Shown here: positions 1-57,100 of the stretch, piece by piece
Numbering within the stretch: the first letter of the stretch is position 1
Layout of the letters: every line of letters starts with the position of its first letter
Source: Eledone cirrhosa
Lineage: Eukaryota
NCBI GenBank assembly: GCA_964016885.1
Contig: OZ024745.1
Coordinates: 61,318,001 to 61,382,000, forward strand
Direction: 5' to 3'
DNA length: 64,000 bases
The notes under the pieces: generated by a model
Told to the model about the DNA's origin: nothing
Databases searched by the model: none
What the model saw: the letters and a program-made list of their open reading frames with translations, nothing else
Translations under genes and position numbers: made by a program

Positions 1-1883
1 TGAACTATAGTAGCAGTTTTGGCAAATTTTTGCTCAACAAAATAATTTGGAGATAATTATAAAGAATTAGTATATCTACCAACATATATATACAGATGTA
101 TACCTATGCTAGCAAATATATAGGTTTTGTCTTAGTAACTTTGTGGTTCAATGCAAGGGGATGCAGAACAATTATATGAAAGACGTAAAATAAGAAAATG
201 ATAAAAATTAACTTACTTACTAAAATTTCACTCCAACTAATTAGTTTCTGAAAGGGAATAAACATGGTTTCCGAATGGAACACATGGAGAATGCCTTTCG
301 TCATCAGGAAGTCAATTCTCAGCTAAGTTCCCAGGCGATGCGTAGACACAGGGAACTTATACAAAAATAATTCAGTGGATGGAAAAAAGCAAACGAGGAC
401 TAAATTCCAAGACATTGAAAAAATCACTGTCTACTTGGTCGGTGGCAAATTCAAAAGAACCAATCACGTGACATCGAGGTTAATCAGTGAGGAGTGGGGT
501 GTTAAGAAGACAGTAGCCGAACTATTACTATGAACTATAGTAGCAGTTTTGGCAAATTTTTGCTCAACAAAATAATTTGGAGATAATTATAAAGAATTAG
601 TATATCTACCAACATATATATACAGATGTATACCTATGCTAGCAAATATATAGGTTTTGTCTTAGTAACTTTGTGGTTCAATGCAAGGGGATGCAGAACA
701 ATTATATGAAAGACGTAAAATAAGAAAATGATAAAAATTAACTTACTTACTAAAATTTCACTCCAACTAATTAGTTTCTGAAAGGGAATAAACATGGTTT
801 CCGAATGGAACACATGGAGAATGCCTTTCGTCATCAGGAAGTCAATTCTCAGCTAAGTTCCCAGGCGATGCGTAGACACAGGGAACTTATACAAAAATAA
901 TTCAGTGGATGGAAAAAAAGCAAACGAGGACTAAATTCCAAGACATTGAAAAAATCACTGTCTACTTGGTCGGTGGCAAATTCAAAAGAACCAATCACGT
1001 GACATCGAGGTTAATCAGTGAGGAGTGGGGTGTTAAGAAGACAGTAGCCGAACTATTACTATGAACTATAGTAGCAGATTTGTCAAATTTTTGCTCAACA
1101 AAATAATTTGGAGATAATTATAAAGAATTAGTATATCTACCAACATATATATACAGATGCATACCTATGCTAGCAAATATATAGGTTTTGTCTTAGTAAC
1201 TTTGTGGTTTAATGCAAGGGGATGCAGAACAATTATATGAAAGACGTAAAATAAGAAAATGATAAAAATTAACTTACTTACTAAAATTTCACTCCAACTA
1301 ATTAGTTTCTGAAAGGGAATAAACATGGTTTCCGAATGGAACACATGGAGAATGCTTTCGTCATCAGGAAGTCAATTCTCAGCTAAGTTCCCAGGCGATG
1401 CGTGGACACAGGGAACTTATACAAAAATAATTCAGTGGATGGAAAAAAGCAAGCGAGGACTAAATTCCAAGACATTGAAAAAATCACTGCCTACTTGGTC
1501 AGTGGCAAATTCAAAAGAATCAATCACGTGACATCGAGGTTAATCAGTGAGGAGTGGGGTGTTAAGAAGACAGTAGCCGAACTATTACTATGAACTATAG
1601 TAGCAGATTTGTCAATTTTTTGCTCAACAAAATAATTTGGAGATAATTATAAAGAATTAGTATATCTACCAACATATATATACAGATGCATACCTATGCT
1701 AGCAAATATATAGGTTTTGTCTTAGTAACTTTGTGGTTCAATGTATATATTCCTGATGACGAAAGGCATTCTCCATGTGTTCCATTCGGAAACCATGTTT
1801 ATTCCCTTTCAGAAACTAATTAGTTGGAGTGAAATTTTAGTAAGTAAGTTAATTTTTATAATTTTCTTATTTTATGTCTTTCA
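1..1883 (-). mobile_element. Tandem array of ~530-bp HHR-bearing units (3.3 copies visible, starts before window) plus inverted terminal segment 1751-1883; retrozyme-like / non-autonomous PLE
   Basis: Near-identical units start at about 1, 531, 1062 and 1592; 1751-1883 is the reverse complement of part of the unit; ends in (TA)n; one HHR per unit. Confidence 0.8.
230..312 (-). ncRNA. Type I hammerhead ribozyme with extended stem II (copies at 760-842 and 1291-1372 on -, and 1751-1830 on +)
   Basis: Minus strand: ACTTC-CTGATGA-c-GAAAGG...CCTTTC-a-GAAAC-TAATTA-GTT-GGAGT; stem I ACTTC/GGAGT, palindromic stem III. Confidence 0.75.
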
Positions 1884-1969
1884 TATATATATATATATAT
1901 ATATATATATATATATATATATATATATATATATATATATATATATATATATATATATATATATATATA

Positions 1970-2590
1970 GTATAACAATAATGGAACAAAGAATCAGTGT
2001 TGCATCATAACATTTAATAACATATTACATATGTTTCACTGTCAATCAGCTCGAAGAACAATCTATTATTGATCGAACCTGACTCTGGAATCGAAAGATC
2101 CTCAGATATGCCTCAGTATGTAAGCTCGTCTCTGATTTTGTGAGAATATATCCAGTACCTTCTTACATTTAGTACATTCCAACAACGTGTATTCTGCGGT
2201 CTCCTCTCGTTGGTTCGTTATTCATCCCATAATCGGTTTATTTACAAAATTATAGGACGAATAACGAACCAATGAGAGGAGACCGCAGGATACACGTTGT
2301 TGGAATGTGCTAAATGTAAGAAGGTACTGGAGATATTCTCACAAAATCAGAGACGAGCTTACATACTGAGGCATATCTGAGGATCTTTCGATTCCAGAGT
2401 CAGGTTCGATCAATAATAGATCGTTCCTCGAGCCGATCGACAGTGAAACATATGTGATATGTTATTAAATATGTTATGACGCAACATTGATTCTTTGTTC
2501 CTTTATTCTTATACAATTATTATCTGCTCTGCGCGAGCATCGAGTGCTCACCCAGCATACCGCCTACGGACGCAATTATCTTGCACCTAC
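1970..2590. mobile_element. Fold-back non-autonomous HHR element
   Basis: Imperfect inverted arms ~1980-2230 / ~2257-2510, flanked by (TA)n and (CA)n. Confidence 0.7.
2021..2110 (-). ncRNA. Type I hammerhead ribozyme, long stem II (plus-strand copy 2372-2461 has a GTG triplet, likely inactive)
   Basis: Minus strand: CATAT-CTGAGGA-[~60 nt]-GAAAC-ATAT-GTA-ATATG. Confidence 0.65.
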
Positions 2591-2755
2591 ACACACACAC
2601 ACACACACACACACACACACACACACACACACACACACACATACATACATATACACACACACACACACACACACACATACATACACACACACACACACAC
2701 ATATACATACATACATACAAACATACATACATTACATACATACATACATACATAT

Positions 2756-2960
2756 GTTGGTTCACAAAGGGCCAGAAACACAAATGTAACATAGCTTCTT
2801 TGTAGATGACCTGAAACTTTATGCCAAGAATATAAATGGTAAGAAAACCCTTGACCTAGTTACGACGTTCTCAAAAGATGTAGGAATGGAGTTTGACCAG
2901 GATAAATGTTCCTATATGATTGTAAAGCGAGGTAAAACTACAAGCCAATCTAGAAACAGT
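2756..2960 (+). pseudogene. Non-LTR retrotransposon RT fragment (R4/Dong-like)
   Basis: Translates to SFFVDDLKLYAKNINGKKTLDLVTTFSKDVGMEFDQDKCSYMIVKRGK; directly follows a (TACA)n tract. Confidence 0.75.
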
Positions 2961-3054
2961 GGCCTGACACTTTCAGTGGCATCTGACGATTACTTTTGTA
3001 CACATATGCTGTACAAAAGGCTCAAAATTGAGACAGAATTGTATTTTCTATAAT

Positions 3055-54619: not shown

Positions 54620-56184
54620 AAATGTAAGTATGTATGTATACGTACATACATATATGTATACAGACGTACTGTAGTATGTATATATATACATACTTGCACA
54701 TATATATATATATATGCACGTATCGGTTTACCGAACATTTATTATAATGCTCGGTTTGTTTGTTTGTAAACAAACAAACAGCCCGAATTACGCCGTACAG
54801 TGTTTAGGCAACCACGTCACCTTTTTGTTCAACACTGACACAGGAACGATGTACTAGTTTCAAGCTTATTAGCTATCGTCAGCATCGTATACCTTCCTGC
54901 CAGATGGTTGAACGTCTGAAAGTATATACTTTCCTTATGCATATTAACGGCTGAGCAGCAGTATACGATGTTGACGATAGCTAATAAGCTTGAAACTAGT
55001 ACATCGTTCCTGTGTCAGTGTTGAACAAAAAGGTGACGTGGTTGCCTAAACACTGTACGGCGTAATTCGGGCGGTTTGTTTGTTTACAAACAAACAAACC
55101 GAGCATTATAATAAATGTTCGGTAAACCGATACGTGCATATATATATATATATATGTGCAAGTATGTATATATATACATACTACTGTACGTCTGTATACA
55201 TATATGTATGTACGTATACATACATACATACTTACATTTAAGTAACTGCCGTACTAAGAGTGAGAAATGAAATTTCGTTTCATTCTATTCCATTTATCGT
55301 TTTCGGTGCGCCCAGCCTACTAAACTCACTCGATATGCAAATTAGGCTGCTCAGCCGTTAATATGCATAAGGAAAGTATATACTTTCAGACGTTCAACCA
55401 TCTGGCAGGAAGGTATACGATGCTGACGATAGCTAATAAGCTTGAAACTAGTACATCGTTCCTGTGTCAGTGTTGAACAAAAAGGTGACGTGGTTGCCTA
55501 AACACTGTACGGCGTAATTCGGGCTGTTTGTTTGTTTACAAACAAACAAACCGAGCATTATAATAAATGTTCGGTAAACCGATACGTGCATATATATATA
55601 TATATGTGCAAGTATGTATATATATACATACTACAGTACGTCTGTATACATATATGTATGTACGTATACATACATACATACTTACATTTAAGTAACTGCC
55701 GTACTAAGAGTGAGAAATGAAATTTCGTTTCATTCTATTCCATTTATCGTTTTCGGTGCGCCCAGCCTACTAAACTCACTCGATATGCAAATTAGGCTGC
55801 TCAGCCGTTAATATGCATAAGGAAAGTATATACTTTCAGACGTTCAACCATCTGGCAGGAAGGTATACGATGTTGACGATAGCTAATAAGCTTGAAACTA
55901 GTACATCGTTCCTGTGCCAGTGTTCAACAAAAAGGTGACGTGGTTGCCTAAACACTGTACGGCGTAATTCGGGCTGTTTGTTTGTTTACAAACAAACAAA
56001 CCGAGCATTATAATAAATGTTCGGTAAACCGATACGTACATATATATATGTGTGCATGTATGTGTATATATACATACTACTGTACGTCTGTATACATATA
56101 TGTATGTACGTATACATACATACTTACATTTAAGTAACTGCCGTACTAAGAGTGAGAAATGAAATTTCGTTTCATTCTATTCCA
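54620..56184 (+). mobile_element. Tandem array of ~450-bp HHR-bearing units (2.7 copies) preceded by an inverted segment (54620-54959); retrozyme-like
   Basis: HHRs recur at 54965, 55417 and 55867; inverted copy at 54846-54888; TA-rich flanks. Confidence 0.85.
55417..55459 (+). ncRNA. Minimal type I hammerhead ribozyme, canonical core (intact inverted copy 54846-54888; C3->T copies at 54965-55007 and 55867-55909)
   Basis: ACGATG-CTGACGA-tAGCT-aata-AGCTt-GAAAC-TA-GTA-CATCGT. Confidence 0.9.
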
Positions 56185-56282
56185 TATATATATATGTATA
56201 TGTGTATGTATATATGTGTATATATATATATATATATATGTATATATATGTATGTATATATGTATATATATATATATATATA

Positions 56283-56538
56283 TAAAGAAAAAGAGATGAA
56301 ATCGAAAATGCAACTGGAGTCTTATTTAAAAAAAAAAATATATATATTTATTTGGTTCCTTTACCGGTTTCGCAGTTCTTCTGCTTTTCAAAAGGTGAGT
56401 TGAGATGGAGGGTCTGTGGTTTTTCTCACAGATGTGTAGAAGAACTGCGAAACCGGTAAAGGAACCAAATAAATATATATATTTAAAAAAAAAAATAAGA
56501 CTCCAGTTGCATTTTCGATTTCATCTCATTTTCTTTAT
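56283..56538. repeat. Fold-back element retaining the 3' half of an HHR
   Basis: Arms ~56283-56381 / ~56439-56538; GAAAC-CG-GTA motif present, CUGA half absent. Confidence 0.6.
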
Positions 56539-57069
56539 ACTTTCACTCGTGTAGGACACCTCAGTTATTTTTCATTTTGTAAAAAAAACAACCTCACTTT
56601 CTAATATATATATATATATATATATATATATATATATATATATATATATATATATATATATATATATATATATATGTATATATATATGTATATATATGTG
56701 TATGTATATATGTATATATGTATATATATATAAATGTATATATGTATGTATATATGTATATATATATATATATATATATACACACATATATACATACATA
56801 TACACACACATATATATATATATATATATATATATACATATATACATATATATACATATATATATATATATATATATATATATATATATATATAGTTAGG
56901 GAAGCCGAAAATTGCTTATTGTGATCCAGTTCTTGGTTAAGAAAGCCAGTTTCATGGATGGTTTCAACGGTCGTAAATACCTGGATAAAAATCCTTCTCT
57001 TAATGCTTACCTGTGTTCTCTCTTTTATACACACACACACACACACACACACACACACACATATATATG

Positions 57070-57100
57070 TGATGAAGGACTAGCGTCCGAAACGTTAAGA
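57070..57100 (+). ncRNA. 5'-truncated hammerhead remnant
   Basis: TGATGA-a-GGAC-tagc-GTCC-GAAACGTTA directly after a microsatellite; 5' strand of stem I missing. Confidence 0.55.

Follow-up and report, generated by a model that had tools for sequence, protein, structure and literature searches.

Hammerhead ribozyme inserts in the genome of Eledone cirrhosa are probably, for the most part, truncated ends of diverse Hydra-type Penelope-like elements

A 64,000-nucleotide stretch of the Eledone cirrhosa genome (contig OZ024745.1 of assembly GCA_964016885.1, positions 61,318,001 to 61,382,000; hereafter the window, numbered from its first letter) carries many type I hammerhead ribozyme (HHR) motifs, which raises the question of what the inserts that bear them are and which proteins moved them. 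The first-pass annotation of this DNA had described a window-level system of non-coding HHR elements within (TA)n, mobilized in trans by proteins like those of two Naiad-like Penelope-like elements (PLEs) found there. Judged from the sequences analyzed here, it is likely that most of these inserts are 5'-truncated 3' ends of many separate PLEs of the Hydra clade, and that a minority are non-coding retrozymes that were probably copied in trans by Hydra reverse transcriptases (RTs).

The HHR folds in the window are real. A strict type I descriptor (CUGANGA, GAAA, and UH, where H is not G; stem I of at least 4 bp; palindromic stem III) gave 12 HHRs in the 64 kb and none in any of 40 controls shuffled by dinucleotides in 1-kb blocks. 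When one core change and a hairpin stem III were permitted, the scan gave 19 motifs, against a shuffle mean of 0.28. In a non-circular test anchored on the core and stem I only, stem III was paired in 49 of 56 distinct motifs and stem II in 44 of 56, compared with 0–4 motifs per shuffle, 0–1 of them with a paired stem III, in four shuffles. This bears out the earlier statement that stem sequences differ while pairing is kept, and pairing was likewise preserved across 46 clusters of differing sequence. Among copies of ten families, substitution rates were 1.6% in the core, 5.9% in the flanks, 16.6% at N7, and 11.0% in the stem II region; these copies were collected by BLAST, are related to each other, and were partly picked by similarity.

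Twelve sites had been listed as type I folds, and nine of these include one or more copies that are intact or vary at U4; U4 variants of the HHR occur naturally. The other three (9116, 28686, and 57070) are defective copies of real families. Core and stems I–III are complete in the 12 strict motifs and incomplete in the copies at 9116, 28686, 57070, 2377, 54971, and 55873. At Rfam gathering thresholds the window has no HHR match (the sole matches are two tRNA-like ones), so the motifs are of an atypical, PLE-type kind. The first pair of stem II is not Watson-Crick in 32 of the 46 clusters, and G10.1-C11.1 is found in six of the 46. A mirror element at 56285..56603 (minus strand), absent from the first-pass annotation, has a U3-A8 core at 56391 that is present in many genomic copies; in a related family at 7253 and 22659 (plus strand), every copy seen has GCAA instead of GAAA besides the U3-A8 core. 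A U3-A8 family that is intact in locus L066 has truncated copies at 20682 and 31512. These four motifs, and degenerate ones at 9518 and 20197, had likewise gone unlisted. Descriptor scans gave no match to G3-C8 or A3-U8 cores, and a descriptor for the rearranged type-SGC HHR (block order S-G-C), which had no positive control, gave none in the window plus 590 kb of genome sample. Minimum free energy folding of single HHRs was set aside as evidence, since it often did not return the active fold, as expected for motifs that are thought to act as dimers.

To place the window in its 3.0-Gb genome, of which it is a part rich in (TA)n and (CA)n, we sampled 59 stretches of 10 kb (60 requested) at round coordinates on C1–C24, leaving out C16, C25–C28, and the small contigs. 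The sample contained 57 strict-core HHRs per 590 kb, spread over 24 of the 59 stretches, and five shuffles contained none. Extrapolation gives a genome total of ∼289,000 strict HHRs (bootstrap 183,000–416,000), or ∼1 per 10 kb. The window rate (12 per 64 kb) is ∼1.9 times the sampled one (resampling P ∼0.05 for at least 13), and 12 of the 13 window families recur in the 590 kb. The window is thus an ordinary sample of the genome, and the proposed window-level system was not borne out; HHR density is a genome-wide property seen in arbitrary stretches. The embedding in (TA)n did hold, as (TA)4 lies within 300 nt 3' of 58 of 63 sampled HHRs, against a background of 29%. By our own assignment, the 63 sampled HHRs comprise 33 in families linked to an open reading frame (ORF), 18 of retrozyme type, and 12 of neither kind. 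Over all loci we pooled 536 motifs in 46 clusters, a set enriched by targeted searches.

These counts also dispose of the possibility that DNA rich in AT and palindromes yields such folds by chance. The stems are AT-rich (for example, ATATATAT), and relaxed descriptors gave up to three matches per 590-kb shuffle. The excess of strict motifs over shuffles in both the window and the sample, together with the pairing of stem III in the non-circular test, refutes this explanation, and we give it practically no chance.

If the folds are real, what are the inserts? We tested 13 families, namely the 12 that had been listed and one at 25715, and examined most loci with 1.5-kb flanks. Coding parents were found for seven of the 13 (F3–F9), and those of F4 and F5 are two elements inside the window, PLE1 and PLE2. 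In F7 an ORF lies upstream in 4 of 4 long stretches, which were selected for paired matches, and one of these has an HHR before the ORF start as well. For F8, 20 loci were selected with a Hydra endonuclease as the query, and in 17 of them the HHR lies 1.1–1.5 kb downstream of it (16 of 19 once the query locus is excluded). A sense endonuclease is found upstream in 6 of 30 F6 loci and in two of five long F9 stretches, and the coding parent of F3 was seen at L338 and L342. The endonucleases of six coding families are 34–50% identical to each other, which argues that these are separate autonomous families.

The window copies of these families are mostly truncated 3' ends. The F3 copy (7770..8322, plus strand) has an intact HHR at 8120 (listed as 8115), an inverted arm at 7781–7884, and, from 8230, a tail hairpin of the kind described below. 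The F6 copy (21836..22280, minus strand) has an intact HHR at 21934 (listed as 21873). The F7 copy (25340..25811, plus strand), whose HHR at 25715 had not been listed, is a truncated end of a family with a 4156-bp unit, and the F8 copy (25848..26012, plus strand) has an intact HHR at 25917 (listed as 25912). F9 is represented by a mirror pair (26721..27137) of the 3' end of its coding family, with HHRs at 26823 (minus) and 26938 (plus, listed as 26931), both intact. Three short F4 3' ends lie in a local triplication (39378..40620, minus strand); an intact U4A HHR at 39463, absent from the earlier list, is in one, and the cores of the other two are damaged. A further F4 3' end is at 52060–52326. 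The triplicated block is ∼550 bp (39330–41015), joins the F4 end to a second repeat, and has a further copy near 51870–52660. Apart from these families, F5b (9062..9370, minus strand) is an ∼80% relative of the PLE2 end, and its HHR core at 9151–9157 (listed as 9116) has an A6G change and is likely inactive.

PLE1 and PLE2 had been called Naiad-like. PLE1 (10117..13500, minus strand) has a frameshifted ORF from 13423 to 11296, encoding RT and then GIY-YIG, and an ∼1.1-kb 3' region that contains an insert resembling a short interspersed nuclear element (SINE) and a U4A HHR at 10186 (listed as 10141). PLE2 (13926..19513, plus strand) has an ORF at 15641–17977 without its 5' end, a 1.55-kb 3' untranslated region (UTR), a U4C HHR at 19428, and an inverted arm at 13926–15642 that carries a second HHR at 14172 (the pair had been listed as 14130/19424) and a tail hairpin at 14050–14083. 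In both, the GIY-YIG domain (VIY...YVG) is C-terminal, after the RT; PLE2 has DKT, PLE1 has SKT, and both have RWR instead of RWK. The CxCX5C linker is present in PLE2, PLE1, F6, and F9 and is partial or damaged in the F7 and F8 copies; CxxC is found in five of six endonucleases and CxH in all six, and CCHH is absent. Both elements have HHRs near their 3' ends and are inserted in (TA)n, as are Hydra PLEs. We therefore rejected a Naiad identity, for which a C-terminal endonuclease, DKT or SKT rather than DKA, the absence of CCHH, and HHRs at both 3' ends do not fit; by domain order and motifs, PLE1 and PLE2 are Hydra-type. A homolog search with a PLE protein gave matches that include Argonauta and Solemya proteins, and Pfam gave no match for six window proteins.

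The window copies cannot themselves supply protein, because ∼53 codons are missing from the start of PLE2 and frameshifts interrupt PLE1; the idea that they are the source did not survive, and intact frames are found elsewhere in the genome. The PLE2 family has a single 832-amino acid stop-to-stop frame with RT and C-terminal GIY-YIG in L269–L273, and PLE2 is 98.7% identical to a full-length copy elsewhere. Its endonuclease is 100% identical in 150 of 150 scored matches (39 within 832-amino acid frames, counted by eye), so this family is very young. The full unit of the family runs HHR, tail, ORF, 3' UTR, HHR and measures 4201 bp from HHR to HHR.

A different picture emerged for the families without an ORF. 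F1 (1..1882, minus strand, the array beginning before the window) consists of tandem 530-bp non-coding units with HHR cores at 307, 837, and 1367 (listed as 230); its short inverted arm has a core at 1753 (plus strand) with stem I reduced to 3 bp. F11 (54620..56183, plus strand) consists of tandem 450-bp non-coding units with an intact HHR at 55423 (listed as 55417), C3U cores at 54971 and 55873, and an inverted arm with an intact HHR at 54882 (minus strand). No sense PLE was found upstream of F1 or F11 at any of 30 loci each within 1.5-kb flanks, and the upstream sequence wraps round to the own unit in 6 of 27 (F1) and 13 of 28 (F11) non-window loci. F10 (28546..28770, minus strand), a truncated copy whose HHR at 28726 (listed as 28686) has G8A, belongs to a family that forms an ∼430–440-bp tandem unit at one other locus and is probably a retrozyme as well. 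We rejected the stretch upstream of F10 (28770–29460) as a PLE 3' UTR, as 15 of 15 other copies lack a downstream HHR and it is an unrelated repeat. F10 and F11 units carry ATGCAAAT octamers (55784–55791 in F11, with the F10 counterpart in L218), against a background of 0.03 per 450 bp, which suggests a predicted internal promoter of small nuclear RNA type. Newt satellite 2 has such a promoter.

Like the PLEs here, the retrozymes target (TA)n, are truncated at the 5' side, have inverted arms, and end at two fixed 3' points, from which it appears that a Hydra RT moves them. An alternative is that the 530- and 450-bp units are remnants of PLE ends amplified as DNA satellites by unequal crossover rather than copied from RNA in trans. 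Arrays do reach seven units (L075), and satellite birth from PLE ends has been proposed (bioRxiv 10.64898/2026.07.22.740005; this and the other papers cited were available to us in part, and statements about them refer to those parts). However, F1 and F11 copies are 96–99% alike yet scattered over many chromosomes, like the coding PLEs they end at fixed points in (TA)n, lack varying lengths of 5' sequence, and have inverted arms, and 70 contigs of an independent run (their kind unrecorded) end in (TA)n at 55297, the F11 long end. We consider amplification as satellites improbable.

These results divide the earlier claim that the inserts are for the most part non-autonomous elements, mobilized in trans by proteins of Naiad-like kind such as those of PLE1 and PLE2. 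Non-autonomy stands for the 530- and 450-bp tandem units, with their movement in trans inferred, and F1, F11, and probably F10, together with 18 of the 63 sampled HHRs by our assignment, are what the claim would predict. For F2, F5b, and F12 no coding parent was found; 400–700 nt of upstream extension of F2 and F12 revealed neither an ORF nor wrap-round, and F5b was not separately searched. For the seven families with their own ORFs the claim is refuted; ORF-linked families hold 33 of the 63 sampled HHRs by the same assignment, the encoded proteins show Hydra motifs and carry the endonuclease at the C-terminus, and both window copies are defective. As a general account of the inserts it is very unlikely. 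In the window, F2 forms a mirror pair (1969..2588) with an intact HHR at 2105 (minus strand, listed as 2021), one at 2377 (plus strand) with G17 at the cleavage site, and a tail hairpin at 2526–2545. The F12 copy (57070..57187, plus strand) is 5'-truncated at nucleotide C3 of the core and lacks the 5' strand of stem I; elsewhere this family has an intact minimal HHR with one additional base after A9, and both F10 and F12 have intact cores at other genomic loci. An apparent F12 tandem at L052 (424 bp) was rejected as a retrozyme sign, since it is a single insertion duplicated along contig C3.

How were these ends generated? Copies of most families stop at two fixed points, ∼20–60 and 90–210 nt beyond the cleavage site; they abut (TA)n, and their 5' side is variably truncated or inverted. 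The short and long ends lie 48 and 139 nt past the site in F7, 52 and 150 in F9, 43 and 134 in F6, 25 and 115 in F4, 42 and 208 in F5, and 57 and 173 in F1. The twin 3' ends match the tail of a PLE, which has been traced to two internal RT start sites (PMC11167929). Tails of 19 of 36 long-tail families contain a hairpin with the consensus R(C/U)UC, stem, 2-nt bulge, and GA(G/A)Y, compared with a shuffle mean of 0.83 (maximum of 5 in 500), none in an upstream control, and two on the reverse strand. In 12 of the 15 families that show both, it begins 6–9 nt past the short end, and in the other three ∼2–13 nt past it. A second copy follows the long end by 7–8 nt in F1, F4, F5, and F7, the four of four hairpin families that could be read through, and in coding families it sits ahead of the start codon (in PLE1 at 13443–13458, immediately before it). 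Of 43 long tails of F1, 33 contain the first hairpin; the window array of F1 contains tail hairpins at 146–169 and 676–699 and second hairpins at 32–53, 562–583, 1093–1114, and 1622–1643. The hairpin is also visible by eye in the published Hydra-2_Amil 3' end and Hydra-1_Ajap 5' end. These positions suggest that the hairpins position the RT.

We looked for a footprint of cleavage, that is, 5' ends piling up at the cut, in 11 families and found none; each flanking 5-nt bin had three starts, like its neighbors, in a dataset that leans to HHR-containing copies. This implies that integrated cDNAs crossed an intact HHR and derived from uncleaved multimers or re-ligated circles.

Each coding unit is laid out in tandem as tail/5' UTR, ORF (RT and C-terminal GIY-YIG), long 3' UTR, HHR, and tail. 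From these data we propose the following mechanism. The endonuclease would nick (TA)n, and the RT would start internally, 6–9 nt 5' of either bulged hairpin, and copy across the HHR. Most cDNAs would end after a few hundred bases, which would make the HHR-bearing stub the commonest product, and fresh (TA)n-flanked insertions would draw in further ones, which would account for nesting. The HHR likely cuts tandem transcripts to unit length, and the cDNAs that integrate would come from uncleaved or re-ligated RNA; a circle intermediate has been proposed (PMC4209133). The 530- and 450-bp units, which have PLE-like insertion anatomy without an ORF, would be copied by Hydra RT from multimeric or circular RNA, and the 530-bp unit retains both hairpins. 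Taken as a whole, the proposal that ∼300,000 HHRs stem from an ongoing Hydra PLE radiation, in which a hairpin pair found from corals to cephalopods sets two RT starts and the tail, and that a 530-bp retrozyme keeps both hairpins and hijacks the RT from circular RNA, has in our estimate an even chance of being right.

Besides the families for which no coding parent was found, several observations weigh against our interpretation. Matches were picked by similarity to the query. At the F11 locus L148, a sense PLE start lies downstream, beyond a (TA)n break. The units of 4201 and 4156 bp exceed the size of described Hydra elements (<3 kb, a descriptive rather than diagnostic value), an excess due to long 3' UTRs. 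The tail hairpin is absent from F11 (0 of 60), F10 (0 of 4), F12 (0 of 16), and a 310-bp family (0 of 9), so one signal cannot account for all non-autonomous families. Eight of nine Xenopus retrozyme dimers did not cleave and one did (bioRxiv 10.64898/2026.07.22.740005), and, in vitro, HHR mutants left Poseidon PLE insertion unaffected, with no RNA ends at the cut (PMC11167929).

The Poseidon result, like the lack of excess 5' ends at the cut, would be expected if HHRs were passengers, retained for their position close to the RT start, and cleavage mattered little for transposition; many copies with U4 changes or a mismatched first stem II pair would also fit. Yet core positions change 3.7 times less than flanks (among copies that are not independent), an entire family is fixed for a compensatory U3-A8 core, and stems keep pairing across the 46 clusters, and we therefore regard a passenger role as unlikely.

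Much of this system has known counterparts. The Hydra clade of PLEs with a C-terminal endonuclease includes Hydra-1_Obim of Octopus bimaculoides (Craig et al. 2021, PMC8557442), and the elements here resemble that clade in their C-terminal GIY-YIG, DKT, RWK-like motif (here RWR), CxCX5C linker, CxxC, CxH, and lack of CCHH. Both also insert into (TA)n, carry their HHR close to the 3' end, have a tail on one side, and show 5'-truncated arms in inverted orientation. A U-U or other additional pair at the stem II base, as in 32 of our 46 clusters, is frequent in the Hydra HHRs of its File S2. In contrast to the Hydra elements described there, many families coexist here, one of them very young; units are 4.2 kb with 1–2-kb 3' UTRs (versus <3 kb), tails are ∼55–165 nt (versus 30–40), and long or branched stem II and U4C or U4A cores occur. 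We came across no reference to the tail hairpin in the available part of that paper, though it is visible in its coral and sea-cucumber Hydra sequences. Naiad elements share the (TA)n preference and inverted arms; unlike ours, they have an N-terminal endonuclease, DKA, and CCHH, without a canonical HHR (PMC8557442).

As in the minimal HHRs of PLEs (Cervera and de la Pena 2014, PMC4209133), type I motifs with palindromic stem III lie in PLE repeats, many divergent families share one genome, single motifs predominate ("probably related to truncated PLEs"), opposite-strand pairs lie 100–700 bp apart, and a U3-A8 variant occurs. Our estimate of ∼289,000 differs from the ∼2,000 plus 1,300 minimal motifs of Schistosoma, and G10.1-C11.1, "highly conserved" there, is found in 6 of 46 clusters here. 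Metazoan retrozymes are proposed to be PLE-derived and PLE-mobilized (Cervera and de la Pena 2020, PMC7229834; Li, Clavereau and Pollet 2026, bioRxiv 10.64898/2026.07.22.740005). Ours resemble these retrozymes, which lack long terminal repeats, in being non-coding units a few hundred bp long that are arranged in tandem, contain a single type I HHR per unit, and coexist with PLEs. They differ from those described in their (TA)n targets, their inversions, and the twin 3' ends typical of PLEs, and the Hydra hairpin pair is retained in one of them. Poseidon PAc (Frangieh et al. 2024, PMC11167929) resembles the system proposed here in having two RT starts 3' of the HHR, which set the tail, an uncleaved RNA template, and AT-rich targets. 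PAc, a member of another clade, starts within one AC-rich stem-loop in the ORF, whereas the starts predicted here are at two bulged 5' UTR hairpins, one after each end.

Thus, Hydra PLEs (including those of Octopus), PLE hammerheads, retrozymes, and single motifs as truncated PLE ends (PMC4209133) are already known. In the papers searched we found nothing on this scale, no Hydra radiation with long UTRs, no retrozymes with PLE-type ends, and no hairpin pair. Our estimated HHR total exceeds the largest count in the papers compared; counts elsewhere include 126,247 in axolotl (∼28-Gb genome) and >6,000 in Acropora (PMC7229834). In the literature searched, outside subscription papers and bioRxiv supplements, we found no cephalopod HHR census or hairpin description, and the available part of an O. 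vulgaris repeat annotation (PMC13282606) contained none of the words "hammerhead," "ribozyme," or "Hydra."

The window and its surroundings hold further features. Degenerate or truncated HHRs occur in (TA)n-embedded mirror elements at 9379–9900, 19890–20340, 20670–20726, and 31380–31557, with degenerate cores at 9518 (minus strand) and 20197 (plus strand). A near-palindromic element in (TA)n at 7540–7770 has no HHR match, and further copies of its 3' part are present in L025 and L354. At L278:9250–9500, ∼0.6 kb before the window, an F4 end is spliced at a shared GAA to ∼100 nt of F2 HHR that is 99% identical to window positions 2347–2447, possibly an RT template switch between RNAs of two families. 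A mirror-image tRNA-derived element at 26300–26720, between (TA)n runs, has PLE-like inverted anatomy and contains both Rfam tRNA matches (26414–26484, minus strand, and 26524–26579, plus strand); it is possibly a SINE moved by a PLE. Tandem segmental repeats with periods of ∼60 kb (L297–L304, on C12) and ∼150 kb (L316–L322, on C3) each carry the same HHR insertion. Two minisatellites lie at 41830–43274 (49 bp, 29.5 copies) and 44895–45910 (47 bp, 21.6 copies). At 49746–50171 (minus strand), a 141-amino acid frame with RPD...VVEISCP and no Pfam match presumably resembles the restriction-like endonuclease of a non-LTR (long terminal repeat) retrotransposon.

With ∼1 HHR per 10 kb in at least 46 sequence clusters, this genome provides a large number of natural sequences in which covariation of atypical hammerheads can be followed. 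Intact, near-identical Hydra ORFs, candidate RT-positioning hairpins, and a retrozyme that keeps them allow a direct test of how a PLE RT chooses its internal start, and make it testable whether PLEs mobilize retrozymes. If this is so, the hairpin pair on the 530-bp retrozyme would be a defined cis-signal for mobilization in trans.

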